A stretch of DNA of 32,000 nt from positions 1,110,001-1,142,000 of the forward strand of contig JBDHVY010000001.1 in the NCBI GenBank assembly GCA_039809905.1, in the 5' to 3' direction. The notes below the pieces were generated by a model. It saw only the letters and a program-made list of their open reading frames with translations. It did no database searches and was not told where the DNA came from. Both the position numbers and the translations under genes were made by a program. Each line of letters starts with the position of its first letter. Positions within the stretch are counted from its first letter, which is position 1. Below, piece after piece: positions 15,757 to 31,413 of the stretch. The DNA comes from Candidatus Babelota bacterium. Its GTDB lineage: Bacteria > Babelota > Babeliae > Babelales > Vermiphilaceae.

Positions 15757-16101
15757 ATGCAAAATCATTTTTACGTATATATTTTAAAATGTAAGAATGG
15801 AGCTTATTATGTCGGTCATACAGATAATATAGATCAGCGAATGTCACAGCATCATTTGGGCCTGATTGACAATTGTTATACGAAAAAAATGAGGCCTGTA
15901 GAGTTGTTATTTCTACAGGTCTTTTCTACTCGAGATGATGCTTTTCATGCTGAACGTCAAATTAAAGGTTGGTCGCGTAAAAAAAAAGAAGCTTTAATGC
16001 GAGAAGATTGGCAAGAGATAAAGGAGTTAAATGCATTGCAAAAGACGAAGAGCGCTTTAATCCTTCAACAAGTTCAGGATGAGCGCGGCGAAGACTCATA
16101 A
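15757..16101 (+). CDS. GIY-YIG nuclease family protein (small stand-alone UPF0213/YhbQ-like type)
   Basis: FYVYILKCKNGAYYVGHTDNIDQRMSQH (GIY...YVG), then ERQIKGWSRKKKEALM, typical of the short GIY-YIG family. The last approx. 15 codons are encoded by the right inverted-repeat arm. Confidence 0.85.
   Translation: MQNHFYVYILKCKNGAYYVGHTDNIDQRMSQHHLGLIDNCYTKKMRPVELLFLQVFSTRDDAFHAERQIKGWSRKKKEALMREDWQEIKELNALQKTKSALILQQVQDERGEDS
16057..16087. repeat. Right arm of perfect 31-bp inverted repeat (inside the 3' end of the GIY-YIG ORF)
   Basis: ttaatccttcaacaagttcaggatgagcgcg is the exact reverse complement of 15701-15731. Confidence 0.9.
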
Positions 16102-16143: not shown

Positions 16144-17067
16144 ATGAAAATAGCATTATTATTTCCTGGATATGGTAATCAATTTGTTGGTATGGGCAAA
16201 GAATTGTATGACGAATATCGCGTTGTGCAAGAATATTTTGAAGAAGCTTCTAATTGTTTGGATATTAATTTTGTAAAGTTATGTTTTGCCTCGTCTGATA
16301 TTGAATTAGGAAAAATTAATAATGCATATACATCTTTGTTTTTAGTTGGTTCTTCAGTATACGCGGTTTTAAAAGAACATGGCATAGAGCCAGATGTTGT
16401 TATGGGCTATAACAATGGAGAAAGTGCGGCATTATTTGCTGCAGGGTGTTTTAGCTTACCTGATGGCCTCTATTTATTAAATAAATTTTCTTCATTTTAT
16501 CAGGAATTTATTGATGAAAATGAAGTTGATGCAATGCAAGTAATTGACTTTTCATCAAGAGATCTTGAAGTTCTTTGTGAAAAAATAAGCACTGATGAGT
16601 ATCCTATTTCGATTGCCATTTATAATAGTCAGACAGATCATATTGTTACAGGAAATCGTATTGGTCTTGGACAATTGCAAGATGCTATTGATGGCAAAGG
16701 AAAAATTGAATTTGTTGGTCCAGAAGTAGGATTACATTCATTATTGATGAATACGATAGTAGATGTATTGAAAAGCTATCTTGAAAAAGTAGATTTTAAA
16801 GATCTTAAAATTCCACTAATTAGTTGTATTGATGGAACTATAGTAACTGAAGGATCTGATACTAAAGATCGTTTTATCCGTCATATTAATTCGCCAATTC
16901 AATTTACCAAAGCAATGGAAAAATTAGTTGATTATGATTGTATTCTTATAACAACTCCTGGTGATGCATTAGCTCAAATGGTGCAGCAACATTATCCTGA
17001 AAAAATGGTTATCTCAATTGCAAAAAAAACAGATGTTGATACATTAAAAGAGACCTTAGGTAAATAG
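16144..17067 (+). CDS. fabD: FabD-family (malonyl-CoA:ACP transacylase fold) protein with substituted catalytic residues
   Basis: Collinear by eye with E. coli FabD: LLFPGYGNQFVGMG (FPGQGSQ), VVMGYNNGESAALFAAG (GHSLGEYSAL), VGLHSLLM (PSHCALM), NSPIQFTKAM (NPVQWTKS). Position next to acpP supports the family. Active-site changes are described in findings. Confidence 0.8.
   Translation: MKIALLFPGYGNQFVGMGKELYDEYRVVQEYFEEASNCLDINFVKLCFASSDIELGKINNAYTSLFLVGSSVYAVLKEHGIEPDVVMGYNNGESAALFAAGCFSLPDGLYLLNKFSSFYQEFIDENEVDAMQVIDFSSRDLEVLCEKISTDEYPISIAIYNSQTDHIVTGNRIGLGQLQDAIDGKGKIEFVGPEVGLHSLLMNTIVDVLKSYLEKVDFKDLKIPLISCIDGTIVTEGSDTKDRFIRHINSPIQFTKAMEKLVDYDCILITTPGDALAQMVQQHYPEKMVISIAKKTDVDTLKETLGK
17031..17067 (+). 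repeat. Copy A of duplicated fabD-like 3' end (the functional end)
   Basis: agatgttgatacattaaaagaga (23 nt, identical to 17118-17140) continues as ccttaggtaaatag. Encodes DVDTLKETLGK*. Confidence 0.9.
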
Positions 17068-17080
17068 TATTTTCTTAATC

Positions 17081-17117: not shown

Positions 17118-17154
17118 AGATGTTGATACATTAAAAGAGATGTTAAATAAATAA
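17118..17154 (+). repeat. Copy B (ghost) of the fabD-like 3' end
   Basis: Same 23 nt followed by tgttaaataaataa. In the fabD frame it would read DVDTLKEMLNK*. 32 of 37 nt identical to copy A. Confidence 0.9.
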
Positions 17155-17227
17155 TAATTATAACAAAACATGTTTTTCTCGTTACGAAATTTTCGTACGA
17201 AACAACGTGTAGTATGAGGTATAATCA

Positions 17228-17560: not shown

Positions 17561-18523
17561 ATGCTTCATTTAAATAAATGCCTTATGCTTTTTTTCTTAA
17601 CTATTTTTTCTTCTCTTTTTTCTTCTTTGAATCATTTTCCCAGAGGTAGAAACTTAGAGCTTAATATTATTTCTTGTTTAAATAGTGGAAGTGATGCAGC
17701 TCGAGCTGTAAGAGATGGCAATTATGATAGAGCCAAACAAATATTTATATTTTTTGAACCGCATTTAAGAATAGAGCTTTTAGATCATATAGAACATAGA
17801 AGAAATGCATTGATTGGTTATGATGAGCAACTCAGGAAATATGGAAAAGTTGAGTGCACTATGGATCCAAAATGTCCACCTAATTATATGCTGGATACAG
17901 ATCAAGAAGTTGAGATGCGTTTTAATGGAGTTGCAGATGGTGCAAAAACGGTGAAATTCGATAAGATGGTAGATATGAAAGAGTATCTAATACCTTATTC
18001 TTTAACTTTATCTGAACAACCGTTCAATACATTTGCTATAGAGATTCCTTATGATCCTGATAATAGCACAATAGAGATTCCTGTCGAGCTTAAAGAAATT
18101 GATTTTGCTCAAAAACAGAGCTATTTGAGCTATTATTATCCGGATGCAAAATCTAAGACGAAAGTATACAGAGGTACATTCTGCAAAAATGATGACATCA
18201 GGAGAAAAGAGCACAATTTTGAGACAATATCAATTCGAGAATTAGTTAAAAATAATAATATGCAAAAGAATGAATATCTCTTTCTAAGCTTAAAGCGTCT
18301 TTCTTCTCTTTCAGATTCTCTTTTTGATCGATTTCCAGATTCGATATATTTAAAAATAAAGTTGGATGTGTCACAAAAAAATAATCTTGTATCAGATAAA
18401 GAAGTAATGCGTAAAGCTTCAATTTATGGATATATTGTAGGCAATAAATTTTATTTCTGTGCATTAACAAGTATGTGTTCTTTGCTTGTATGGTGGTGCT
18501 ATTCGAACTTCAGAAAAGCATAG
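17561..18523 (+). CDS. Hypothetical protein with N-terminal signal-like and C-terminal hydrophobic anchor
   Basis: MLHLNKCLMLFFLTIFSSLFSSLN leader and C-terminal FYFCALTSMCSLLVWWCYSNFRKA. No domain recognised. Confidence 0.5.
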   Translation: MLHLNKCLMLFFLTIFSSLFSSLNHFPRGRNLELNIISCLNSGSDAARAVRDGNYDRAKQIFIFFEPHLRIELLDHIEHRRNALIGYDEQLRKYGKVECTMDPKCPPNYMLDTDQEVEMRFNGVADGAKTVKFDKMVDMKEYLIPYSLTLSEQPFNTFAIEIPYDPDNSTIEIPVELKEIDFAQKQSYLSYYYPDAKSKTKVYRGTFCKNDDIRRKEHNFETISIRELVKNNNMQKNEYLFLSLKRLSSLSDSLFDRFPDSIYLKIKLDVSQKNNLVSDKEVMRKASIYGYIVGNKFYFCALTSMCSLLVWWCYSNFRKA

Positions 18524-18529
18524 TGATAA

Positions 18530-18998
18530 TTAAAATGATATGCCACTCTTTAACCATACACTTGCCTGTCCCATAGTGGTATTTGTTGGTTGATAGGTGT
18601 TACGAGTATTAATACCTTCAAATTCAATTTCAGCACCAATTCCTAAATATGGTACTCGTTGACCTTCCCTGAGATGTGTCCATGCATGAGAAAGATGCCA
18701 AAATAATTTTTGTGTTAAAATAAGCGGCGATGCAGCAGATTTTACGTTAAGATCTTGCGTGGTGATAAACACAGGAAATAAACCATCAGATACAATAGGG
18801 CCTGTTTCATAAATTGTAGCAAGGCTTTCTGTAGTATTATTAGGTTGTCCGGTGATTGGATTTGCTGCAAATTGTATGCCTTTTAAGCCATATTTATTTG
18901 CGGGAATTGTTTCACGTAAACATATTTTTTCTCTACTTCTAATCCATCCATTATAACCAATATCAAAAACAAAATCGTTATACATGTATGCAAACATG
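18530..18998 (-). pseudogene. 3'-terminal fragment (approx. last 155 codons) of the OMP gene at 20024-21577
   Basis: 469 bp collinear without indels with 20024-20492 (20 mismatches by my count). It lacks the signal peptide and the N-terminal two-thirds of the barrel. The ORF begins at an internal Met (MFAYMYNDFVFD vs MFAYTYNDFVFD). Confidence 0.7.
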
Positions 18999-19017: not shown

Positions 19018-19872
19018 CTATGTTTGTCTTAGTTTTATATGAATATTGATTTCAAAAAAATAGTGTACAAGAAAACAGGCCATCAAAGATGCAAAACTTA
19101 TGGTAATGATTCTATTGGATGTCAAAAAAGATTTTGCTGTCTTTGAATTTGGTGTATTAGCAGTAGCTCCGCCATCAGGGGAATTAATTTTTGTAGGAGA
19201 TGTTTGAGTTTTTTCCTGTTTCCATGTATTCGGTTCGCAATATACGACTAATTCGTAACCCAGGCAAGGAAAATTATCTGTATTCACATTTCTATTACTT
19301 GCAAAACCGCTATTTGGCTTGAATCTGGCTAAAGTTATTGCTACAGGGCCTCTATACTTTTCTTGGAGCGTTGTACAAAAATATTCTGTTTCATTAGTTT
19401 GTAACATGCTCAGTGTATCCAATCCCTTCGTATATTGAACGTCTTCTTTTTTTGCCCATGCTATTTTTCGAGGGGTAATTATCTGAGATAATTCATCCTT
19501 GGACAGCCAACTTTTTTGCATTTCATCAGTATGGAGCAGTTTTTTTCCGATAAGTTTTAAGGATTTTTTTTGGGGGTCAAGAATTAGTTTTTTAGTAAAA
19601 TGATCTGTGTTGATTCCTGCTATCGTTGTATTTGTTTCTTCTATTTTGCTTATAAGAAAGTAGATATCTTCATCCATTTTTTCATCACGAGTGTTTGTGT
19701 TTATATGCATCATCAGTGTATGTATATCATATTTTTCTTCGGGATCATTAATTTTAAAAGGATGGTCTAACATTCCTTTTGTTTGGTATACACGGCTACC
19801 GCGAGTCTCGCTGCCGAGTGAATAAAAATGAGCTAGAAATAATATTAATATTATAGGTTTTTTTATTTTCAT
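19018..19872 (-). CDS. Hypothetical protein with signal peptide and C-terminal hydrophobic anchor
   Basis: MKIKKPIILILFLAHFYSLGS leader and C-terminal IITISFASLMACFLVHYFF. Sits between the two OMP 3' remnants. No domain recognised. Confidence 0.55.
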   Translation of the reverse strand: MKIKKPIILILFLAHFYSLGSETRGSRVYQTKGMLDHPFKINDPEEKYDIHTLMMHINTNTRDEKMDEDIYFLISKIEETNTTIAGINTDHFTKKLILDPQKKSLKLIGKKLLHTDEMQKSWLSKDELSQIITPRKIAWAKKEDVQYTKGLDTLSMLQTNETEYFCTTLQEKYRGPVAITLARFKPNSGFASNRNVNTDNFPCLGYELVVYCEPNTWKQEKTQTSPTKINSPDGGATANTPNSKTAKSFLTSNRIITISFASLMACFLVHYFFEINIHIKLRQT

Positions 19873-20023: not shown

Positions 20024-21577
20024 TTAAAATGATAGTCCACCTTTTAACCAGACACTTGCTTGTCCCATAGTGGTATTTGTTGGCTGGTAGGCGTTTCTTG
20101 TATTAATACCTTCAAATTCAATTTCAGCACCAATTCCTAAATATGGCACTCGTTGACCTTCCCTGAGATGTGTCCATGCATGAGAAAGATGCCAAAATAA
20201 TTTTTGTGTTAAAATAAGCGGCGATGCAGCAGATTTTACGTTAAGATCTTGCGTCGTGATAAATACAGGAAATAAACCATCAGATACAATAGGGCCTGTT
20301 TCATAAATTGTAGCAAGGCTTTCTGTAGTATTATTAGGTTGTCCGGTGATTGGATTTGCTGCAAATTGTACGCCTTTTAAGCCATATTTATTTGCGGGAA
20401 TTGTTTCACGTAAACATATTTTTTCTCTACTTCTAATCCATCCATTATAACCAATATCAAAAACAAAATCGTTATAGGTATACGCAAACATGAAAATCAT
20501 ATCAACAACAATGCTACAATGAACATTGCATTTTAAGGTAGTGAAATTGATTGCGGGAACAATTCGTTCTGCAAAAATACCATCTTCATCAAATTCTTTT
20601 GCTAAAATATATCGACTAAAAAAACCATTTTTACAGAAATCAAATGAGCGTCTTTGGCGTGCTTTTAACATGGTGGTAAAGTTTGCATCAACCCAAAGCG
20701 CAAGTTCTTGTTCTCCATCTTTTTCCCATAATCGTGTGTGACCAGTAAAACCAAACCCAAGACGCCAATTTTTCCCACAACCGATGATTGGTTCAAAGAA
20801 AAATTCTCCTTTTGGTCTTGATCCTGTAGGTGCAGATGCACGGAAATTAAGACCAAGATGTGATGTTTCTCTTCTGATAAAATCGTAACCAAAAACTATT
20901 TCAAATGCGGCAAATCCACTAAGTGTTTGATCACCACAAATTTTTCCGAATTTTAATTTTTCAACTTCACCAAAAGAAGAAGTTCCTCTCATCGCTTGTA
21001 TAAATGAATCATAGGGTGGAGTAACTTCAGTTGCGGCCATATAGCCAACGGGATATGGAGTATTTTCGCCTTCTTCAAGAATGCTTTCACTTAATTTAAG
21101 ATTCCATTGCGTCCATACTGCTGGTCCACGTAATTGTAAATATAATCCTTGTACCCATGAATCAAACCCAATATATAATGCCATATCCATAATTAAGTTG
21201 CGAATGAGAGGTTTAAAAAATGTGTCATTTGCAAATGCAGGAGAAAGGCCAAAATAATCGGCGAGCAATTCGTTTGTACCTTCACGGCCAGGAAGCTGAC
21301 TGCCAGAAAGAGAAAATGTATCAGAATTAAAAAGGGCAAGTGAAATATTTTTTGGTCTAAGAGATTGATTATACTCAGGAGTAAAAGCAACAACACCATA
21401 ATTTTTTTTTGCATCATAACGGTGAATTAATGGATGCCAGCCAACAATATCGCGCGCAGCATTCATATCTTGTGAGCGAGGACTAAAAAATGAAATTCCG
21501 CGCAGTTGTTCTGATGAATAGAGAAATGATGTTAATGATGTGATAAGCAGAAAAATTATTTTATTTTTTTTAATCAT
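20024..21577 (-). CDS. Large outer-membrane beta-barrel protein (major-OMP/porin-like), paralog 1
   Basis: Track ORF trimmed to the Met at 21577 (MIKKNKIIFLLITSLTSFLYSSEQ is a signal peptide). Alternating amphipathic strands; C-terminus ASVWLKGGLSF ends in Phe. Shares ADYFGL, FEPI(I/V)G...W.LGFG, RRSFD and SRY(I/M)LA motifs with the ORFs at 27761-31413. Resemblance to Legionella/Coxiella-type major OMPs is from memory only. Confidence 0.75.
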   Translation of the reverse strand: MIKKNKIIFLLITSLTSFLYSSEQLRGISFFSPRSQDMNAARDIVGWHPLIHRYDAKKNYGVVAFTPEYNQSLRPKNISLALFNSDTFSLSGSQLPGREGTNELLADYFGLSPAFANDTFFKPLIRNLIMDMALYIGFDSWVQGLYLQLRGPAVWTQWNLKLSESILEEGENTPYPVGYMAATEVTPPYDSFIQAMRGTSSFGEVEKLKFGKICGDQTLSGFAAFEIVFGYDFIRRETSHLGLNFRASAPTGSRPKGEFFFEPIIGCGKNWRLGFGFTGHTRLWEKDGEQELALWVDANFTTMLKARQRRSFDFCKNGFFSRYILAKEFDEDGIFAERIVPAINFTTLKCNVHCSIVVDMIFMFAYTYNDFVFDIGYNGWIRSREKICLRETIPANKYGLKGVQFAANPITGQPNNTTESLATIYETGPIVSDGLFPVFITTQDLNVKSAASPLILTQKLFWHLSHAWTHLREGQRVPYLGIGAEIEFEGINTRNAYQPTNTTMGQASVWLKGGLSF

Positions 21578-21606
21578 TGCGTGCCCTTGTGGTAGGAACT
21601 TTTTAA

Positions 21607-21641
21607 CCCCATGTGAAACAGAGTGGAACATGGGGACCCCG
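21607..21641. repeat. GC-rich hairpin element, copy 2
   Basis: CCCCATGTgaaacagagtggaACATGGGGaccccg: perfect 8-bp stem and 13-nt loop, 11 of 13 loop nt identical to copy 1. Lies about 30 nt upstream of the OMP start codon, on the opposite strand relative to that gene. Confidence 0.8.
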
Positions 21642-21714
21642 TTCAAGAGATCTCTCTTATTGTTACTGTAGAACGTATGAGGCATTGATTACAAGGGATT
21701 TATATAAGCATACT

Positions 21715-21748
21715 ATTAGAGCCTCTGCAAATTAACAGAGGCTCTAAT
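21715..21748 (-). terminator. Terminator-like hairpin downstream of the macro-domain gene
   Basis: Perfect 13-bp stem attagagcctctg / cagaggctctaat with an 8-nt loop. Adjacent 20-nt perfect palindrome aaaaattgttaacaattttt (21749-21768). No clean U-tract on the - strand, hence moderate confidence. Confidence 0.5.
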
Positions 21749-21769
21749 AAAAATTGTTAACAATTTTTA

Positions 21770-22834
21770 TTATTTACGTAACTCATCACTAAATTTTTCG
21801 TAAACATTCATATCATCATTTGAAAAAAGTACAAATCTAATTTCATCAAAAGACTTTGGATTACTTTTTACAAAATCTCTCACTGCAGCAAATGCAACTG
21901 GTGTTGCCTTATTGATATCATAACCAAAAATAGCAGTGCTAATTGCGGGAAAAGCAATACTGCGCAAATTATTTTTTTGAGCTATTTTGAGACTGTTTTG
22001 GTATGCATTACGTAATAATATTTCTTTGTCTGGATTGCTTCCCAGTGGCCCTACGGTATTAATGATATTTTTTATACCAACTTTTTGTAAATTAAATGCA
22101 GGTGTGATTACCGCTTCACCAATTTGACATTTTATATTCGGAGCTTTTACTATTGGCATTTCGTTACAATAATTTTGAAACTTTTGCCCTGCGGCGTCAC
22201 GAATTGCTCGCGCAACTCCTCCACGATTACCCAAATGTTCATTAGCGGCATTAACAATGGCATCAACGTTCTGTTTTGTGATATCACCTTGTTCAAAAGT
22301 AATAAGAGTTTCTCTAATATACAGTTCTTCTTCTGGTTGCTGTGGTAATTGTTGTGCTTGCGCTTGCTTTTGTTTTTTTTCTACAACGGGACGTGCCATG
22401 TGTATTACATGCTTTTGTGGTGCGCGATCTATAATATTTTCAATAGATTTATCTAAAGATTCTATGATTCTATCATTCGTTTTCAGATCATCAGACCATG
22501 TTGCATGAATATGTGCGCCTGCTTGTAGTAATGCTTGTTTTTCGATTTTGGAAATATTTATAGATTTAACGAAATCAATAAAAGATTGAGTGAATACATT
22601 ATTTTTTAATACCTGGTCAGAAGGCATTTTTGTTCTTATTATTTCAAGAGCTTGCGCGTATGATTCTGGTTTTTTAATAGCTTTGCGTTGTCGTATAAAA
22701 GGTGTAGGTTTTACCTGAGCTTGAACGGGATTTATTTCTGGTTGCGGCACCGTAATACCTTTTCTTCCTACTTTTGCATTAAGAGGTTCTAAACAGCACA
22801 ACAAAAAAATAAAAATAATTTTTTTATAATTCAT
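21770..22834 (-). CDS. Secreted modular protein: signal peptide, shared N-module, Q-rich linker, macro domain (ADP-ribose binding/hydrolase type)
   Basis: Leader MNYKKIIFIFLLCCLEPLNAKV. The C-terminal approx. 185 aa carry canonical macro motifs DAIVNAANEHLGNRGGVARAI, GEAVITPAFNL, IINTVGP and SIAFPAISTAIFGYD. Confidence 0.85.
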   Translation of the reverse strand: MNYKKIIFIFLLCCLEPLNAKVGRKGITVPQPEINPVQAQVKPTPFIRQRKAIKKPESYAQALEIIRTKMPSDQVLKNNVFTQSFIDFVKSINISKIEKQALLQAGAHIHATWSDDLKTNDRIIESLDKSIENIIDRAPQKHVIHMARPVVEKKQKQAQAQQLPQQPEEELYIRETLITFEQGDITKQNVDAIVNAANEHLGNRGGVARAIRDAAGQKFQNYCNEMPIVKAPNIKCQIGEAVITPAFNLQKVGIKNIINTVGPLGSNPDKEILLRNAYQNSLKIAQKNNLRSIAFPAISTAIFGYDINKATPVAFAAVRDFVKSNPKSFDEIRFVLFSNDDMNVYEKFSDELRK

Positions 22835-22860
22835 GATTGATTCCTTTGTTTGTGTTGCAA

Positions 22861-23277
22861 TTACAATTTATGTATAGCAGCAGCTATTTGACTTCCAACA
22901 TCTTCTAATATTTCAAGGTTTTCATCTGAATTGTTTGAAAAAACTCCATGCACATCGCGTGCTGTTTGTAACAAAGCTTGCAAATGAGTATCTTCTAACT
23001 GTGCTTGCTGAACTAGGTTTATCATGGAATTAACAAAGGTAGAGTCCAATCTTTTATTTATGTTATCCCATGCAAGTTTTGAATTTTTTACAAAAATCAT
23101 AAGACTTTTAAAGGTGGTGGGCTTTTGTTCACGATGTTGCCTGATTACCGGTTTGGGTTCTGGTTCTGGTTGTACTATTGGATTTGTTGCCACGACAGCT
23201 TTGCGACTACCCTTAGCATCAATACATAGTGCCGAAAATAACATTACCGTGATGAGTGTAATTTTTAAAAATTTCAT
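22861..23277 (-). CDS. Secreted protein consisting only of leader, Pro-rich linker and shared N-module
   Basis: Track ORF trimmed to the Met at 23277 (MKFLKITLITVMLFSALCIDAKG). Residues approx. 52-138 align at low identity with the N-modules of the two flanking genes (F.N..I.LVQ...L....LQALLQ.A..VH..F). Confidence 0.6.
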   Translation of the reverse strand: MKFLKITLITVMLFSALCIDAKGSRKAVVATNPIVQPEPEPKPVIRQHREQKPTTFKSLMIFVKNSKLAWDNINKRLDSTFVNSMINLVQQAQLEDTHLQALLQTARDVHGVFSNNSDENLEILEDVGSQIAAAIHKL

Positions 23278-23365
23278 AAAGATATCCTTTTTTGCGCAAC
23301 TGTGGTTTTCTCTGCGAGAAGAAAGCACATTTGCTGGTTATATGCTATCTATTTGCTTTTTTATC

Positions 23366-24970
23366 TTACTCTGTGTCTGTGTAATAATTTGACAAAGCAT
23401 CCAGCTCAAAAACATGTAAATCCTCCATGATACCTGTAGAATTGGTTGGGGTATCACCAATAAGCTCTTGTTTAATAGGAGAGAATTTTCCTTTTATTGA
23501 TGGTGGCTCTTCATTGGTTTCATAGTAGGTGTTATAGCTAAATGGCTGTTTATCAGTTCCAAGATATAAGCCACCTTTTTTTATTGAATTATGCAATAAC
23601 CTACCTGCGTGAGGAGTTGGAAAAACAGTCATATATTTTTTATTGAAAAATTGCTTTTCTACTGTACCAGCCCAACCATGAAGTTTCATGGCGATATTTC
23701 TATACGTACCTCTAATCTCATTAAAAGGGTTTTTGAATATACCTCTATGTTCTGTTGATATTGGTGATTTTAATTTTTGCAGCATATCAATCCCTACGCA
23801 TATGATAAGATTGGAATAAGCAGTTTCAAATTGCTCAAGAGTAAAAGACTTTAAATTTATTTCTTGTTTAGGTTTAAAAGGACCCGTTATCGGTTCGTTG
23901 GAGGCATAGGCGATATATATTACAGCATTACTGTCTGTATATCTTTGAAGCATTTGCCCTAAACCAGCTATTCCTGCGCCGATTCCTTCTTCAGTGCCAA
24001 AGAGAATAGAAAATTTTTTCTTATTTGGGCACATTTTTTCTAGTAACTGTGTAATGTAAGGATCGTCTAATCTGAACAAATTAGTGGAAGGACTCTTTTC
24101 TTGTTGTGAGAGATATTTTTGGTCATTACATGTTGTATTTAATACGCGAAGGCTATTTATTACTTGCTTATGATCCAGAAGCGCCTTCATATATTTGTCC
24201 CAAACTGGATAATTTTTATTATCCAATTTTTCCATACCAAAGAAAATTTGTTCTGCAGAAGGTGAAATTCCATATCCTACATAAATATCATAACCTTCTA
24301 ATTTTTTGACTTTTCCTAAAAGATCTTGGTGGGTTTTATCTTTCGTTATAATTGGTGCAGGTTGTGCAACTGGTGCAGTTGGCAGTATTGGTTGAATCGT
24401 TGCGATCGGTTTTGCTGGGATTGTTGGTTTAATTTGTTCTATTGGTTTGGTAGGTGTAATTGGTATTATCTTTTCTGCAGATACAACCGGTTTAGGTATG
24501 GTTACTGGTGGAAGTTTCTCTATGGATTTGGTAGCTGATGATTGTTTAGGTTCTGTTGGTTTGATGCGCATAATATTCTGAATAGTATTGTTCAAAGATA
24601 ATAATGTTTGGTTATTAATTTTGTTATTATCAGTCCATGTTGCGTGGATATGTGCTCCAGCTTCTAACAATGCTTTGGTTTCAATTGGAGAAAGGTTAAG
24701 TGATTGTACAAAATCGATAAATTTTTTGGTGAATGTATTATTAACGAGTATTTCATTTGATGACATTTTGGTTTTTATGGCATTAAGTGCTTGGGCATAT
24801 GATGTTGGTTTTGCCATGGGTTGTTGTAATATTCTAGGAGTAACTATAGGTTGTGCTATCGGTTGCGCTATTGGTTTTGTTGCTGCGGGTGCTTTATGAC
24901 CACCTTTGGCATTAACAGAGAGAGCTGATAACAACAGTATACTGATCAAAAGGTTTTTAAAAAAATTCAT
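23366..24970 (-). CDS. Secreted modular protein: signal peptide, shared N-module, approx. 75-aa Pro-rich linker, orphan approx. 320-aa C-terminal domain
   Basis: Leader MNFFKNLLISILLLSALSVNAKG. The module SYAQALNAIKTKM...FIDFVQSLNLSPIETKALLEAGAHIHATWTD is about 55% identical by eye to the macro-protein module. The C-terminal domain is not recognised. Confidence 0.7.
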   Translation of the reverse strand: MNFFKNLLISILLLSALSVNAKGGHKAPAATKPIAQPIAQPIVTPRILQQPMAKPTSYAQALNAIKTKMSSNEILVNNTFTKKFIDFVQSLNLSPIETKALLEAGAHIHATWTDNNKINNQTLLSLNNTIQNIMRIKPTEPKQSSATKSIEKLPPVTIPKPVVSAEKIIPITPTKPIEQIKPTIPAKPIATIQPILPTAPVAQPAPIITKDKTHQDLLGKVKKLEGYDIYVGYGISPSAEQIFFGMEKLDNKNYPVWDKYMKALLDHKQVINSLRVLNTTCNDQKYLSQQEKSPSTNLFRLDDPYITQLLEKMCPNKKKFSILFGTEEGIGAGIAGLGQMLQRYTDSNAVIYIAYASNEPITGPFKPKQEINLKSFTLEQFETAYSNLIICVGIDMLQKLKSPISTEHRGIFKNPFNEIRGTYRNIAMKLHGWAGTVEKQFFNKKYMTVFPTPHAGRLLHNSIKKGGLYLGTDKQPFSYNTYYETNEEPPSIKGKFSPIKQELIGDTPTNSTGIMEDLHVFELDALSNYYTDTE

Positions 24971-24996
24971 AAAAATATCCTTCTCTCACTTCTTAC

Positions 24997-27462
24997 TTAT
25001 TTTTTCACGTGTTCTCTGGTAAATGTAAACAATGCTTGCTCGTCATCTTCTGATTGTACAACCATTGATGGATCTTGCCGGTCAATTTTATTATCGATAT
25101 ATTTGGTAATTGATTCCAATGTTATTGGTTTTCTTATTTTACTTGTTTCTTGTGGTGTTAATAAGCTGTTTGCAATGGTTGCAATAGGAGCTGATTTTAC
25201 TGGCTGTGAACTGAATCTGATTTTTTTCATATATGCGTAAAGATTTTTTGGATCTTCAAAGTTTTTAATTGCAAAGCTACATTGATAGATATTTTGATTG
25301 AGTTCAAAATATACTTTTATATTGAGTCCTATTGTGCCAATTTTAACATCTTGAGCAGTAATAGGGTTCATTTGCATTGGTTGGCTTGGTGTCATAGGAC
25401 TAGAACCAGATACATTTTTCATCTGTATAATAAAGTTTTTAATTGCACCTTGTTGTGCAGGTAATCCAGACTGTTGATAATCAATGCCTTTTAAGGTTTG
25501 GACTACCGATGTTTGCGGGTATTGCCGTGCATTAAGATATGTACTATGAAATAAAAATGATTGGAGTGTGCCTTCAAAGTTTATTTCTTTAAAGCTATGA
25601 ATCGCTTCATATGCAGGAGTGAATTTCGATGGCGATGGAAACACTATAGCAGTATGACCACTACTACTTTCTTTACCTAAGTTGAGAGGAACGCCAATAC
25701 GCCGTGTAGTTATCATAAGAACATCAATATCAGCACTGCGCACATCAATAGGTTTTCTTTCACGTTCATGATCTTGGACAATCTTACGCGTTAAAATTTT
25801 TGTACTTTTGCTTAATGGTATTGCTTTAAAAAAGCCAGCTTTAGGAAAACGAACAAACGCTTGATTTTGTGGCCTATCATCTAAGTTGACAGTTTTAAGA
25901 ATAGTCTGAATAGAATCGTTTCTTCTTTCTTTTGTTGTGATAAACTTTCTTATAAGACTAAAGAATTCTGAGAAGTTTTGCCCTGTAATTTGTATGCCGG
26001 GCTTATCGCTGCGTACTTCTATTTTTACTTGAGATGAGGTATATCCTTCTTGTATTCCTTGCGATGATGCAATAAAATCTACGTCCAGTTTTGAAAGTGT
26101 TTCATTAACAAAAGTTTGATTAGAGCCACCTGCAAAACAGGTTACATAATGTACAAATGCAGTAGTAAGACTTCCATCAAAAAAAGTCATTAATTGTGCA
26201 AAGTCAGGTGCCATGATTCCTGCTATTTGAGCAGATTCAGGGACAAGTTGTGTATTTGACCATCCCGATCTTCCTTCCAACATTTTTTCATATTCTTTTG
26301 CTTTTGCTCCAACAAAAGCTGTTGGCATTCTTTGTTGTGTCTTTGGATCTATTATGTGATAGTTTTTTGGATTATCAAGATGAGCTTTCATCATAGCATA
26401 TTGTTGGCGTACAAATTCCATTGTCATATGAGCTGGGCTACCATGTCCGGTGAGATATATGATCCACTTGCTGTTATCTTGGTTAGGTGAAATTGGTATG
26501 CCATTTCTTTCTTGTATCGTAAACATTGATGTTAGATTAAAAATAAATTTATCACTGTTTTCGGGTTTTGTTTTTTCTATCTGCAGTTGTTTGAGAAGAT
26601 TGTTTGGGGTTGTATCTGTTATTGTGGTCAGTACTGCTTGATTAAAGCCGCATGCTGCTGCTTGATCACTGAGGCTTAAATTTATAGCCTTGGATGAATT
26701 AGCACGAATATATTCTTTTGGTATCAGCAACACTAATTTTTCTGATTTATGAAAGTAGCAATTAAGATTGTTTGCATCAAAAAGAATATTGCCCAGAAAG
26801 AATACTGAAAGAGAACTTATTCCAGCAACTCTGACATTGGCAAGCAACTGTTGTGATGCTTTAAGTTGTTCCATGGCAGATAAGGAGCGTAATTTTTGTA
26901 AATTCTGATCACCTATTTGTTGGCGCACGGTAAGAATAATTTCAAATACATTGTGCGTCATTATTATCGGAGCTGCTTTTTGGTAGAGCGTAATGAGTGC
27001 CGTTTGAACCATTGATTCGGCACCTCTTTCTACCGTTTCTTTTTTTCGGGGATCGAGGGCCATAACAACATTATTGGTGATAAAACCTTTTTCAATAGGT
27101 ATATTTTTTTGTGGTGCTTGAGGCTGTGCAACTGGTTGAACAGGTATTATTGGTTGTGCTTGAGGTATAGGTTTGGGTTGTTGAAATCCTGGTTGTACTG
27201 GTTTTGGTTTCTGCACAGCGGGAGCTTGTGCCGTTGGAATAGGTTTTTGCTGTGCAGGAAGTTGTGCCGCAGGAGCAATCTTTTTTACTGGTTGCGGTGC
27301 GGGTTTTACTGCCGGTATAGGTTTTGCTGGTGTTGGTACTGGTACTGGAACAACTTGTTGTACCGGTTGCTGAGGTATATTTTGTTGAGCTGTTCTCTTT
27401 GCGCTTACCAAATTGATTGCACATAGTGCTAAGAGTATGATGCTATTTTTGAAAATTTTCAT
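24997..27462 (-). CDS. Large secreted protein: signal peptide, approx. 100-aa P/Q-rich region, possible diverged N-module, putative clan-CD (legumain/C13-like) cysteine peptidase core
   Basis: Leader MKIFKNSIILLALCAINLVSAKR. KWIIYLTGHGSP (His340, codon 26443-26445) and AFVHYVTCFAGGS (Cys442, codon 26137-26139), then VDFIASSQGIQEGYTSS. These resemble human legumain VFIYFTDHGS / MVFYIEACESGS / NVYATTAANPRESSY (from memory). Confidence 0.65.
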   Translation of the reverse strand: MKIFKNSIILLALCAINLVSAKRTAQQNIPQQPVQQVVPVPVPTPAKPIPAVKPAPQPVKKIAPAAQLPAQQKPIPTAQAPAVQKPKPVQPGFQQPKPIPQAQPIIPVQPVAQPQAPQKNIPIEKGFITNNVVMALDPRKKETVERGAESMVQTALITLYQKAAPIIMTHNVFEIILTVRQQIGDQNLQKLRSLSAMEQLKASQQLLANVRVAGISSLSVFFLGNILFDANNLNCYFHKSEKLVLLIPKEYIRANSSKAINLSLSDQAAACGFNQAVLTTITDTTPNNLLKQLQIEKTKPENSDKFIFNLTSMFTIQERNGIPISPNQDNSKWIIYLTGHGSPAHMTMEFVRQQYAMMKAHLDNPKNYHIIDPKTQQRMPTAFVGAKAKEYEKMLEGRSGWSNTQLVPESAQIAGIMAPDFAQLMTFFDGSLTTAFVHYVTCFAGGSNQTFVNETLSKLDVDFIASSQGIQEGYTSSQVKIEVRSDKPGIQITGQNFSEFFSLIRKFITTKERRNDSIQTILKTVNLDDRPQNQAFVRFPKAGFFKAIPLSKSTKILTRKIVQDHERERKPIDVRSADIDVLMITTRRIGVPLNLGKESSSGHTAIVFPSPSKFTPAYEAIHSFKEINFEGTLQSFLFHSTYLNARQYPQTSVVQTLKGIDYQQSGLPAQQGAIKNFIIQMKNVSGSSPMTPSQPMQMNPITAQDVKIGTIGLNIKVYFELNQNIYQCSFAIKNFEDPKNLYAYMKKIRFSSQPVKSAPIATIANSLLTPQETSKIRKPITLESITKYIDNKIDRQDPSMVVQSEDDEQALFTFTREHVKK

Positions 27463-27760: not shown

Positions 27761-29620
27761 TTACCAAGAAACGCCGCCTTTTAACCAAACGGTCCAAAAG
27801 GAAAGTGCGCAGTTAATACATTTATCATCGCCAATGGCTGGTGGTGGTCCTGCTTGCCTGCCAAATTCAATTTCTGATCCAAGCCCAATGTCTGCATGTG
27901 CTCTGCCACGGGTGTTAATAACATGGTTGTAATGGGTAAATATTTTGTGCGAAAAGCCACTTGTTGTCGCACTATTACAATCAATATCCAAAGAGCTGAT
28001 AAATACTGGTTGAATGGAAGTCTTGATTTGGTTAGTAATTAGACTGTCCTCTTTGGATGCAACAAGACGTTGATTGTTTCCGGCAAATGCAGGTTGTGGA
28101 AAATCAATGCCAGGATTTTTATGAGCATTCTGAATTTGGACAGCACGTTCTGTTGGATTTGAACTGACACCCACTTTGGGCACATTTGCGCCATAATTGA
28201 TTGTTGCCCTTGTTTGCGTTGCAGAAAGTGCAACAGGAGTTTGCAAAGGTAAATCATTAGGATTATTTTGTTCTCCAATAAATCCAAAAACTTGTGCATC
28301 TCCCTTGATTGCCCACGTGTTTTGAGCAAACTGACATTTGTTTGATAGAGAAATTTGTTCGCATCCTCGTTTCCAGGCATTGTAACCAAATGTCCAATAA
28401 TTATCTTTGTGTGTGTAAGAACAGTATAATGCAACGTCAGCTTGTGCATTTGTTCGTACAATAACATCATAGGTGGTTAAATTGACAATTGAAGTAACTT
28501 CACGATCAAATTGTGCAATGGGTGTAATGCCATTTCCGGTCAAATTATCAGTGATTGTTGAAGTCATTTTTTCTGCAAGCATATAGCGGCTGTTTGGTTT
28601 TCCTTTAAGATCAAATGAACGGCGTTGGTGTGCTCTAAAGATGTGGTTTACTAATGCATCGATAAAAAAATCAACACGTTCTTCTTGTTCTTCATTGCTC
28701 CATACAACTGCGTGGGCAGTAACACCAAATCCCAATTCCCAATGATGTTGGTTCCCAACAATTGGTTCAAAAAGATATATACTTTTTGGACGATTACCAC
28801 ACGGGACGGCAACTTGCATTTTTATGCCGACATGATGCAAATCTTTTATAAAATGATCGTACCCTACATTTGTTCGTAATTCAGCACAATGAATTGCTCG
28901 TTGTGAACATGGTGACATTTTACCAAACTGTAATGGATGAAAAGTAAGATCACTAATAGTTGGTACACTGCATCCTGAAATATATTGCATGAACCCATTT
29001 AGAATATCTTTTCGTTCTACGCCATCAGGGTTAAAATATCCTGGAGCGTAACCGTTTGTACCTGCGTTGATGATTGCTTCTTTGATATTGAGATCCCAAT
29101 TGGTATAAACAATGGGTAAAAAGACCTCAGCATATAATCCTTTTACGGCATGATTAAAACCAAAAAAAGATTGTAATTCTACAACAACATTATTCACACG
29201 TGGGCGGAAACGCACCATACTCCTAAAATCAGTTGGTAGACCAAAATAATCAGCGAGCCAATCTTTTTGAGGAGTTCGTTTTTCTGTTTGACTTCCTGAT
29301 ACTATAATAAAATCTTTCCATTCGGTATCACCACTTCCTCGCCATACTACATTTTCTCCGAATAAACACTGATTAATTCGTTCTGGTCTAAAAGATGATT
29401 GTGCTGATAAAGATATCGCGTAAGTGCTATATTTTTTTTCTTGAGTGGGACAATGAATTACTTGATCCCAACCTGATACAACGCGTGGTGTATTAAAACC
29501 TTGCGATCGTGGTGAAATAATAGTAATGACTTGCGTGTTTTGTGAGTGAAGCACAGCAGAAAACAACAAAAATAAATAGATAATAAAATATATATTAATT
29601 ATCTTCATTTTATTTATCAT
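27761..29620 (-). CDS. Large outer-membrane beta-barrel protein, paralog 2
   Basis: Signal-like MINKMKIINIYFIIYLFLLFSAVLHSQN. Family motifs ADYFGLPTDF, FEPIVGNQHHWELGFG, RRSFDL, SRYMLAE. C-terminus SFWTVWLKGGVSW ends in an aromatic residue. Confidence 0.75.
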   Translation of the reverse strand: MINKMKIINIYFIIYLFLLFSAVLHSQNTQVITIISPRSQGFNTPRVVSGWDQVIHCPTQEKKYSTYAISLSAQSSFRPERINQCLFGENVVWRGSGDTEWKDFIIVSGSQTEKRTPQKDWLADYFGLPTDFRSMVRFRPRVNNVVVELQSFFGFNHAVKGLYAEVFLPIVYTNWDLNIKEAIINAGTNGYAPGYFNPDGVERKDILNGFMQYISGCSVPTISDLTFHPLQFGKMSPCSQRAIHCAELRTNVGYDHFIKDLHHVGIKMQVAVPCGNRPKSIYLFEPIVGNQHHWELGFGVTAHAVVWSNEEQEERVDFFIDALVNHIFRAHQRRSFDLKGKPNSRYMLAEKMTSTITDNLTGNGITPIAQFDREVTSIVNLTTYDVIVRTNAQADVALYCSYTHKDNYWTFGYNAWKRGCEQISLSNKCQFAQNTWAIKGDAQVFGFIGEQNNPNDLPLQTPVALSATQTRATINYGANVPKVGVSSNPTERAVQIQNAHKNPGIDFPQPAFAGNNQRLVASKEDSLITNQIKTSIQPVFISSLDIDCNSATTSGFSHKIFTHYNHVINTRGRAHADIGLGSEIEFGRQAGPPPAIGDDKCINCALSFWTVWLKGGVSW

Positions 29621-29622
29621 GT

Positions 29623-31413
29623 TTAAAATGTTGCCCCAGTTTTAACCCATAATCCCCATTGGCAAGCACTGCTTTGAGGATTATGATCTTCACAACTATT
29701 GCAATTTTGTTTTGTTCCCGGTGCCCATTCAACTTCACCACCAAAACCAAGATATGGTTGCCATGCTACTTTATCATTCCAAGTGTATGAAAGATGACCA
29801 AATAATTTATTTGAAGAACCGCTTGTTTGAGCACTATCAAAATTAAGATCATTACGAGTAATAAAAATTGGTGGAACTGATGTATTAATAAAGTTAGCTG
29901 GTGCGGATGGACTATTTGGTGCATAGACTAAATTTATTGGAGTACCGGTAGTAGGATTTGTTTGTGCTGCTTGAGGAAAATCAATGCCAGGATTTGTTGC
30001 AGGGTTAGTAGTATTGCCAGCAGCAGAAATATTTTTGCCTGCGTGTATTGTGGCATTATCTTGTGTTGCAGAAAGAGCAATAGAGGTTGTTGAGTTTGGT
30101 AAATACCCAAAGATTTGAGCATCACCTTTGAGTGCAAACATTTTTTCGGTAAATGATTCATTTTGTCTGAGGGTAATATTATCCGCAGATCTTCCCCAAT
30201 AATTATAGCCAAAATCAAAACTCCAATTTCTATGTGTAGCATTAAGCATTAATACAATATCTGCTTGTATGGCAACGCTTACCTCAACATCAAGCGTGGT
30301 AATATTTGCAAGGGGAAGAAAATCGTTATCAAATTGAGCAGATGGTACTTGTCCATTTGCACCTTTCAAATTTACTGCAGGAGATGTCATTTCCATTGCA
30401 AGCATGTATCTGCTCAAGCTTCCTGCGCGTGTTAGATCAAATGTACGTGCTTGGCGTGTTCTGAAAAGATGGGTGATATTCATATCAATATAAAAACAAC
30501 AATGACTGAGCTCATCTTCACTGTACCAAAAATCATAATGACCATTAAGACCAAAACCAAGTTCCCAAAAATGACCGTTTCCAACTAATGGTTCAAACAA
30601 AAAAAGAGCATCAGGGCGTAAGCCTGTTGGCCATGCAATTTGCCCATTAACACCTACATGATAATCGGGTTTTGCAAAAAAATTCCATCCAACAGCGGTA
30701 CGAATTTCTCCCATGCGACTTTTTAACAAGCGTTCAGTACTCATCTGAGCAAAATTCAATTCTTCAAAAGCAATATTTTCTGTGTTTTGTATAGCTTTAC
30801 CATTAACAAAGTCGGTAAAGCTATCAAGTAATTGATTGCGCATCATGCCACTGGGAGTAAGATATCCTGGTGTGCTATTATTGACACCGGGATTGATAAT
30901 GTTTTCAGTGATATTTAAATCCCATCGTGTATGTGCAAATGGTGCGTGCATGACAAAATAAAGACCTTTTGCCCATGCATCAAGACCAAGATAAAAACCA
31001 AAATCAAGAATAACGTTATCAATAACTGGTTTAAATTGAACTGTACTTTCAAAATCAGTTGGTAAATAAAAATAATCTGCAAGTAAATCACGTGGACCAC
31101 GATTACCTGATTGTGAACCAGAAATTTTAAGGTGTTGTGCGCAATCCTTGCCAATAAGATTATCACCAAACAATGTTTTGGTAATGGTATGACCATGAAA
31201 AGTATGAGTATATTCAGGAGTTATACTTAATGCTCCGTATACTCTTTCAGGAGAATTATCTTTATTAATGTAATTTGTCCATCCTGCAAGATCACGAGCT
31301 GCATTACGAGAAATTGAACGAGTATTAAAAGATGTTGCAACGTTTTGTTCTGCTTGAGCGCAAGGAATGAGAGTTGCAGAAAGCGCAAGAGAATAAAGGT
31401 ATCTTTTTTTCAC
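29623..31413 (-). CDS. Large outer-membrane beta-barrel protein, paralog 3
   Basis: Signal peptide MKKRYLYSLALSATLIPCAQAEQ. Motifs ADYFYLPTDF, FEPLVGNGHFWELGFG, ARTFDL, SRYMLAME. C-terminus CQWGLWVKTGATF. Its stop lies only 2 bp from the start codon of paralog 2. Confidence 0.75.
   Translation of the reverse strand: MKKRYLYSLALSATLIPCAQAEQNVATSFNTRSISRNAARDLAGWTNYINKDNSPERVYGALSITPEYTHTFHGHTITKTLFGDNLIGKDCAQHLKISGSQSGNRGPRDLLADYFYLPTDFESTVQFKPVIDNVILDFGFYLGLDAWAKGLYFVMHAPFAHTRWDLNITENIINPGVNNSTPGYLTPSGMMRNQLLDSFTDFVNGKAIQNTENIAFEELNFAQMSTERLLKSRMGEIRTAVGWNFFAKPDYHVGVNGQIAWPTGLRPDALFLFEPLVGNGHFWELGFGLNGHYDFWYSEDELSHCCFYIDMNITHLFRTRQARTFDLTRAGSLSRYMLAMEMTSPAVNLKGANGQVPSAQFDNDFLPLANITTLDVEVSVAIQADIVLMLNATHRNWSFDFGYNYWGRSADNITLRQNESFTEKMFALKGDAQIFGYLPNSTTSIALSATQDNATIHAGKNISAAGNTTNPATNPGIDFPQAAQTNPTTGTPINLVYAPNSPSAPANFINTSVPPIFITRNDLNFDSAQTSGSSNKLFGHLSYTWNDKVAWQPYLGFGGEVEWAPGTKQNCNSCEDHNPQSSACQWGLWVKTGATF

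Follow-up and report, generated by a model that had tools for sequence, protein, structure and literature searches.

A 32,000-nucleotide stretch of a Candidatus Babelota bacterium genome (contig JBDHVY010000001.1, forward-strand positions 1,110,001 to 1,142,000; hereafter the window) carries an array of four co-directional minus-strand genes (21770-27462), here called p821, p534, p138 and macro354 after the size or content of their products, which is flanked by paralogous genes for proteins resembling outer-membrane proteins (OMP-like genes). Three of the four products share an N-terminal cassette of leader, spacer and an ~85-residue module; in p534 and macro354 the cassette stands in front of different C-terminal domains ("heads"), and in p138 it stands alone. 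The window is chromosomal and of low G+C content (~35%), with gyrA, dprA, plsX, gltX, fabD and a metal ABC transporter among its genes. Homologs place its lineage in the Babeliales (Dependentiae/TM6): a p821 homolog (P0028) is named Candidatus Babeliales bacterium, and a syntenic locus (L006) belongs to candidate division TM6 bacterium SOIL31.

The N-terminal region common to macro354, p534 and p138 is similar far beyond chance. By blastp, macro354 and p534 are 48% identical over 136 aa (E=7.5e-32), and p138 is 26-33% identical to the two of them over 133-141 aa (E=1e-10 and 1e-12). An earlier note on this DNA, made from the letters alone, had described a module in these three proteins, which the searches bear out; its estimate of ~55% identity between two of the copies was too low, as the 58-aa stretch that it quoted is identical at 39 of 58 positions (67%). 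The cassette runs from a 21-residue leader through a basic spacer rich in Pro, Gln, Ala and Thr (mean 32 aa) into the module. The module either ends the protein or leads through another Pro-rich spacer to a C-terminal domain that varies. The fourth protein, p821, fits the design attributed to it in part, since it has the leader and a Pro-rich spacer and lacks the module. The stretch THNVFEIILTVRQQIG, which had been suggested as a possible distant copy of the module, was rejected as such: the best match of p821 to the module profile (residues 781-795) has E=0.77, and THNVFEIILTVRQQIG is conserved core sequence that in homologs coexists with a true module upstream.

Leaders follow the consensus M-K-[FLI]-[FL]-K-N-x-L, then 15.6 +/- 2.0 uncharged residues, then Ala and K/R. 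Among 139 complete proteins, the first charged residue lies at position 22 in 76, is K or R in 108 and is preceded by Ala in 79. By inspection, the leaders have the n, h and c regions of type I Sec signal peptides, with Ala at -1 and V, I or L at -3, and the four window proteins have putative cleavage sites at LNA/K, VNA/K, IDA/K and VSA/K (the slash marking the cut). The leaders are putative Sec-type signal peptides, and on inspection the lack of signal peptides that would have refuted the earlier note's reading is not seen. They belong to the cassette, because the OMP-like proteins and stand-alone homologs of the p534 C-terminal domain use different leaders. The module itself is marked by the motif ALL(E/Q)(A/T)(G/A)xx(I/V)H and is predicted to be all-helical, with five helices in the AlphaFold2 (AF2) model (pLDDT 89.6).

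Table 1. Features of the four-gene array and its flanking OMP-like genes (window coordinates; residues numbered within each protein)
Feature	Nucleotides	Strand	Residues	Remarks
p821	24997-27462	-	821 aa	leader, spacer, ~696-aa conserved core; no module
p821 leader	27400-27462	-	1-21	
p821 Pro/Gln-rich spacer	~27088-27399	-	~100 aa	
p821 conserved core	24997-27087	-		
p534	23366-24970	-	534 aa	leader, spacer, A-type module, second Pro-rich spacer, GNAT-like C-terminal domain
p534 leader	24908-24970	-		
p534 A-type module	24560-24811	-	54-137	module E=2.3e-34
p534 second Pro-rich spacer			138-215	
p534 C-terminal domain	23366-24325	-	216-534	GNAT-like
p138	22861-23277	-	138 aa	counted from ATG; leader, spacer, B-type module, nothing more
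p138 B-type module	22864-23124	-	52-138	module E=2.5e-35
macro354	21770-22834	-	354 aa	leader, spacer, A-type module, Gln/Lys-rich spacer, MacroD-type macro domain
macro354 A-type module	22418-22672	-	55-139	module E=8.8e-34
macro354 macro domain	21773-22279	-	186-354	
Stem-loop	~21714-21749	-		15-bp stem; 20 nt past macro354 stop; dG -27.6 kcal/mol
OMP-like gene	20024-21685	-	517/553 aa	517 aa from MIKKNK start at 21577; downstream of array
OMP-like paralog	27761-29620	-	619 aa	upstream of array
OMP-like paralog	29623-31413	-	596 aa	upstream of array, in tandem with the 619-aa gene

A module profile built from the ~85-aa cores of 15 copies was searched exhaustively against 1.84 billion representative proteins. 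The threshold E<=1e-3 was reached by 155 clusters, all apparently from the Babeliales lineage, and E<=1e-10 by 66; a handful of the 155 are ankyrin proteins that match just the short LLEAGA motif. Pooling the profile matches with p821 homologs and the window proteins gave 166 proteins with a full module, which lies at about residues 45-150 throughout, begins at residues 40-79 in 146 of them and is followed by fewer than 50 aa in 82. A pattern-based profile scan of genome contigs, a narrow method, returned one locus, that of TM6 SOIL31. Separate searches for each domain defined at least eight recurrent, unrelated C-terminal classes and eight singletons: the p821 core (~38 proteins), helical FYD repeats (~22), the macro head (five clusters and one decayed copy), the p534 C-domain (four proteins) and four more small clusters, with no class except macro matching Pfam. 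The exchange of C-terminal domains behind a constant leader, spacer and module, which the earlier note saw in one gene cluster, is supported, and the profile search that it had proposed yielded more module-bearing genes with different heads. Its description of the heads as enzymatic is not supported as a general rule, because about half of the proteins are module-only and many heads are helical repeats.

Head content differs among the three module subtypes. A-type modules (LLEAGxxIH) are followed by a head in 38 of 40 clusters and C-type modules in all 20, whereas the 40 clusters of B-type proteins (p138-like, motif LLQTARD) are all 109-217 aa long and always headless; p138 orthologs lie in the same array in L002, L003 and L006. 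The same macro head stands behind an A-type module in the window and behind C-type modules in P0155 and P0158, and P0001 and P0002 carry a tandemly doubled module. Charge complementarity between A- and B-type modules was examined as a hint of heterodimerisation and gave no pattern.

The module has no significant match in Pfam, NCBIfam, PDB sequences, PDB structures or BFVD, as expected from the earlier note, which had not recognised it as any known family. A Foldseek search of its model against PDB and BFVD returned no match at E<1, and none of the searches produced the well-known housekeeping periplasmic domain that would have refuted the earlier note's reading. The most conserved part of the module, ALL(E/Q)AGA (residues ~45-60, for example window 22480-22530), resembles the ankyrin consensus LLEAGADVNA, and LLEAGA locally resembles designed ankyrins (E=0.004), with no stretch significant by itself. 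This likeness may reflect coincidence or a remote origin; the Dependentiae are a phylum very rich in ankyrin proteins. We rejected the module as an ankyrin repeat, as it has no Pfam Ank match and no ankyrin structure appears among its Foldseek matches. No published description of the module, the leader, the headless paralog or the OMP-like link was found in the literature, and we regard the module, its leader, the headless paralog and their tie to undescribed OMP-like genes as new. A constant N-terminal part with swapped C-terminal parts is itself an already known kind of architecture.

The macro354 head is assigned by sequence similarity to the MacroD-type macro domains, in line with the earlier reading: Pfam Macro (PF01661) matches residues 194-314 (E=1.6e-35; 122 bits against a cut-off of 22), the best PDB match is DR_2288 (E=2.8e-33), and the closest solved structures are MacroD-type. 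It shares the Pfam match and the NAAN (including its Asn) and ISTxxxG motifs with proteins such as E. coli YmdB, Deinococcus DR_2288, human MACROD1/2 and PARP14 macro 1, and differs from them in its Sec leader and module, in its catalytic segment and in its NCBIfam scores, which lie below the equivalog cut-offs (O-acetyl-ADP-ribose deacetylase, 147.8 vs 200). The catalytic motif of MacroD1 and YmdB is N-x(6)-GGGV-D-x-x-I-H, with Asn plus Asp/His as key residues; macro354 reads RGGVARAIR at GGGVDxxIH and has no Asp/His. Since this pair is missing and the score falls under the NCBIfam cut-offs, hydrolase activity is uncertain, whereas binding of ADP-ribose is likely.

The C-terminal domain of p534 had been called an orphan domain, a description that gives way to weak but consistent matches to the GNAT fold. 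It belongs to a family of 22 members, most of them stand-alone secreted proteins with a different leader, and has no Pfam match at E<=0.1 and no PDB sequence match. Its AF2 model is confident (pLDDT 89.8, pTM 0.90), and Foldseek ranks nothing but GNAT enzymes among its first 50 PDB matches (best E=1.1e-3, probability 0.99). An invariant EHRGIFKNPF lies at the strand-helix junction corresponding to the GNAT acyl-CoA motif. Compared with members of the GNAT superfamily such as SpeG, the domain is unusual in its length (~320 aa, with large helical insertions), in two nearly invariant Cys and in a signal peptide. In L003, a stand-alone p534 C-domain (17829-18824; 331 aa, own leader, no module) lies a few kb from the fused copy, so fused and unfused forms coexist in one genome. 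The second spacer of the p534 orthologs in L003 (12673-14712, 679 aa) and L006 (3092-4834, 580 aa) consists of a tandem ~15-aa unit, PVMPIEQPRPVAIPK. With ~11 copies of the unit in L003 and just ~75 aa at that spacer in window p534, spacer length is highly variable among relatives.

Homologs of p821 number 30, range from 579 to 959 aa and lack Pfam domains; the family is present in every related locus examined. A true module is carried by 23 of the 30 aligned homologs, and it is of A-type in those from arrays of the L001-L006 type. Residues G339-H340-G341 and Y439, C442, F443, G445, G446 and N448 are invariant in 30 sequences; the GHG and C-F-x-G-G motifs follow hydrophobic stretches (WIIYLTGHG and FVHYVTCFAGG), and ~52 aa separate His and Cys in the shortest homolog. 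Clan CD peptidases (caspase, legumain, clostripain, gingipain) likewise have an invariant His-Gly and a Cys, each after a hydrophobic block. The p821 core differs from them: sequence searches of Pfam, NCBIfam and PDB return nothing for it, and an hhalign comparison of the family with caspase-3 gives a probability of 0.2%. A second invariant Cys/His pair, C271 and H238, leaves other folds open. The protease-like core that the earlier note proposed has the invariant His/Cys motif in its favour; profile methods lend no support to the fold, and a protease fold is unproven. Open reading frames (ORFs) of 105-110 aa on both strands at 27092-27426 run across the Pro/Gln-rich spacer of p821 in frames other than its own; we rejected them as genes and regard them as by-products of the repetitive CCA/CAA-rich sequence.

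The four genes lie at the coordinates first given for them, with gaps of 26, 88 and 26 bp. The hairpin noted after the last gene is strong (z=-7.2 vs shuffled sequences), has no T-run and was not reported by a consensus terminator scan; it is a candidate transcript end of the four-gene unit. The terminator scan found no terminator-like site on the minus strand inside the cluster. A single operon is plausible given the common strand, the short gaps, the lack of an internal terminator-like site and the strong terminal hairpin. Promoter-like sites occurred at chance level (47 found vs 46.8 expected) and were not used.

The OMP-like genes around the array form one family. The 517/553-aa protein matches the 619- and 596-aa paralogs at E=2e-65 and 2e-80, and these are 37% identical to each other (E=2.5e-129). 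Members of the family have signal peptides and C-termini of the form WLKGG(L/V)S(F/W) (the product of 20024-21685 ends in WLKGGLSF) and no Pfam, NCBIfam or PDB relatives; they are putative lineage-specific outer-membrane beta-barrels. OMP-like proteins of 517-642 aa are encoded at both types of module locus (also L007 12503-14143 and L008 10325-11947). At the first type, seen in L001-L006, OMP-like genes are followed by p821-like gene(s), a small B-type gene, A-type genes, an OMP-like gene and then ACP/fabD/gltX; the downstream OMP-like gene holds the same position in L002, L003, L005 and L006, and the upstream pair is syntenic in L001-L003 and L005. The second type lies between secA and hisS in L007, L008, L009, L010 and L012 and consists of a small module-only gene, two to three module-plus-head genes and a convergent OMP-family gene. 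Upstream of the secA-hisS array lies a gene for an orphan protein of 1150-1275 aa, and many members of that array carry an ~65-aa helical repeat starting FYDxxTNLLxQDYL.

Comparison of related loci shows that neighbouring genes recombine in the cassette whatever heads they carry. Modules cluster by locus and not by head: L006_580 and L003_679 share 87% identity in their heads and only 59% in their modules, each of which comes closer to the module of the adjacent p821-like gene (75% or 71% identity). In relatives, DNA tracts of 78-86% identity over 220-260 nt coincide exactly with the module, and one A-type and one B-type gene of L003 share 91% identity over their opening 145 nt, which encode leader and spacer; the window's own module copies show no DNA-level repeat or conversion tract between them. 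Head content also changes. In the close relative L002 (7279-8408), an internal deletion has cut the macro gene to 119 aa, in which the module is fused directly to the last ~35 macro residues, and at the p534 position stands a 257-aa protein that has two modules in tandem and lacks the C-domain. The L005 array has no small proteins.

We consider the chances about even that the module is a lineage-specific docking or sorting domain for Sec-exported proteins that share an envelope partner. The leader would direct Sec export and be cleaved after Ala, the Pro-rich spacers would act as flexible tethers, and the module would bind a single envelope component, common to all these proteins and co-evolving with them. 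The best candidates would be encoded in the same arrays, namely the headless B-type paralog (p138) or the OMP-like barrel family. Docking could keep the heads on the surface or hand them over to a type II system or to vesicles for release. Window p821 would have lost its module secondarily. At least some heads probably act on the host, because ADP-ribosylated targets and acyl-CoA, the usual substrates of macro and GNAT-like domains, occur in host cytoplasm rather than in the periplasm. Signal peptides are encoded by up to 44% of the genes of the Dependentiae, which are obligate and widespread protist parasites (PMC6561590, PMC4378268); proteins with such peptides are assumed to be secreted, either by the type II system, the only secretion system known in the phylum, or by vesicles (PMC4378268, PMC6561590, PMC4776705).

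Several observations weigh against a docking or sorting role. Only one of five AF2 models of the module is confident. Basic residues just past the cleavage site (+1 to +5), as in these leaders, are atypical of Sec substrates. The link to OMP-like genes comes down to two conserved locus types, in effect a sample of two, and synteny alone could produce it. A conserved chromosomal locus beside housekeeping genes also fits an envelope-housekeeping role. As for the heads as enzymes acting on the host, macro354 may bind rather than hydrolyse its ligand, and the GNAT matches of the p534 C-domain are weak (target-normalised TM 0.45, E~1e-3), with no clear acyl-CoA motif Q/RxxGxG/A in the domain. We think it rather improbable that the cassette is, more specifically, the recognition tag of a Dependentiae-specific export or display route through the OMP-like barrels, with the B-type paralog as adaptor or pilot; if it were, the route would explain how parasites without type III, IV or VI systems deliver enzymes, macro domains and acyltransferase-like proteins among them, to their protist hosts.

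Two known kinds of system show parallels to a docking domain. In two-partner secretion, the TPS domain of TpsA is recognised by the Omp85-type barrel TpsB; as there, the module comes right after a Sec leader, and OMP-like genes for proteins of ~520-640 aa are co-located. The module is, however, an ~85-aa helical domain and not a beta-helix of ~250 aa, neither the module proteins nor 15 OMP-like proteins match TPS, ShlB or POTRA in Pfam or NCBIfam, and the OMP-like family has no recognisable relatives. SLH and dockerin-cohesin systems likewise use Pro-rich linkers to tie a small module to a variety of catalytic or repeat domains, and the headless paralog encoded alongside would be a possible partner. 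Neither in sequence nor in fold does the module resemble SLH, dockerin or cohesin domains, and binding remains putative here.

If the module acted instead within the protist, it would be a host-targeting domain that binds a host component after secretion and localises the heads, with the headless forms serving as blockers or binders. The cytosolic substrates that the macro and GNAT-like heads need would fit this, as would the many signal-peptide proteins that Dependentiae are thought to secrete into the host and the weak ankyrin-like LLEAGA motif, ankyrin proteins being the main presumed effectors of the phylum. We judge it unlikely nonetheless. A bacterial partner that co-evolves with the module, or simple gene conversion, accounts more readily for homogenisation within a locus; the constant place of the module right behind the leader and its conserved association with OMP-like genes suggest an envelope step; and the ankyrin likeness extends neither to a Pfam Ank match nor to the Foldseek matches. 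That the array serves periplasmic or outer-membrane maintenance, with the module as a scaffold or as a domain binding peptidoglycan or outer-membrane proteins, seems to us a fairly doubtful alternative. It would account for the conserved position between OMP-like genes and fabD/gltX or secA/hisS and for the p821 family at every related locus, and the degenerate outer membrane of Babeliales may need lineage-specific factors (PMC4776705). However, macro and GNAT-like domains have no obvious periplasmic substrates, close relatives differ in head content (the deleted macro gene and replaced p534 C-domain of L002, the missing small proteins of L005), which is unusual for housekeeping genes, and the module matches no known peptidoglycan- or OMP-binding domain.

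A common N-terminus could also be a relic of tandem duplication, an ancestral leftover with no distinct function, as the genes are adjacent paralogs and the window copies lack DNA-level similarity. This is very unlikely in view of a module position that is fixed across 155 clusters with unrelated heads, the tandem doubling in P0001/P0002, motifs conserved across three subtypes, active homogenisation of modules in several genomes, and the same macro head behind A-type and C-type modules. The earlier note had read the array as a polymorphic effector or toxin family, and we find a toxin system for interbacterial competition, with a constant trafficking N-terminus and exchangeable toxins, scarcely credible. 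Polymorphic toxin families, reportedly classified by Zhang, Aravind and colleagues as having a constant trafficking N-terminus and a variable C-terminus, do resemble the window system formally in the constant N-terminal cassette, the unrelated C-terminal domains and the swapping of parts between neighbouring genes. Yet what follows the heads is a gene for a leader-and-module protein, as the small genes are, or an OMP-like gene, and in no case a small cytoplasmic gene of immunity type; Pfam and NCBIfam searches show no known toxin or trafficking domains, RHS, LXG, TPS and PAAR types included; and the heads are conserved, syntenic orthologs at fixed loci and not hypervariable tips. About half of the family is headless, export is apparently Sec-dependent, and the lifestyle is that of an obligately intracellular parasite.

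A stereotyped, recombining cassette in ~150 clusters and its OMP-like link offer a concrete handle on export sorting in a phylum in which nearly all proteins are annotated as hypothetical. Standing before many unrelated domains, the cassette may reveal how exported enzymes of the Babeliales are sorted or put on display. A candidate set of host-directed proteins also emerges from it, comprising the macro domain, the GNAT-like domain and the protein with the His/Cys motif. Pfam and NCBIfam lack three of the families described here, represented by the module, the C-domain of p534 and the core of p821, and the OMP-like family is a fourth.

Three further observations concern the surroundings of the array. 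A 114-aa protein with a GIY-YIG nuclease domain (15757-16101; Pfam E=6.5e-19) is encoded between gltX and fabD and may be a mobile insertion; near fabD, relatives have an acyl-carrier-protein gene, and L005 has a methyltransferase gene between fabD and gltX. A 42-nt direct repeat (17031-17072 and 17118-17159; 86% identity, 87 nt apart) has its first copy starting in the final codons of fabD and its second just downstream of the gene. Finally, a 155-aa ORF (18530-18997) nearly duplicates the 3' end of the gene at 20024-21685, the OMP-like gene downstream of the array (95% nucleotide identity over at least 300 nt, at a spacing of 1494 nt). Between the two 3' copies lies an orphan gene (19018-19872) for a 284-aa protein with a signal peptide and a C-terminal hydrophobic segment, and the arrangement resembles what an insertion or a partial duplication would leave behind.

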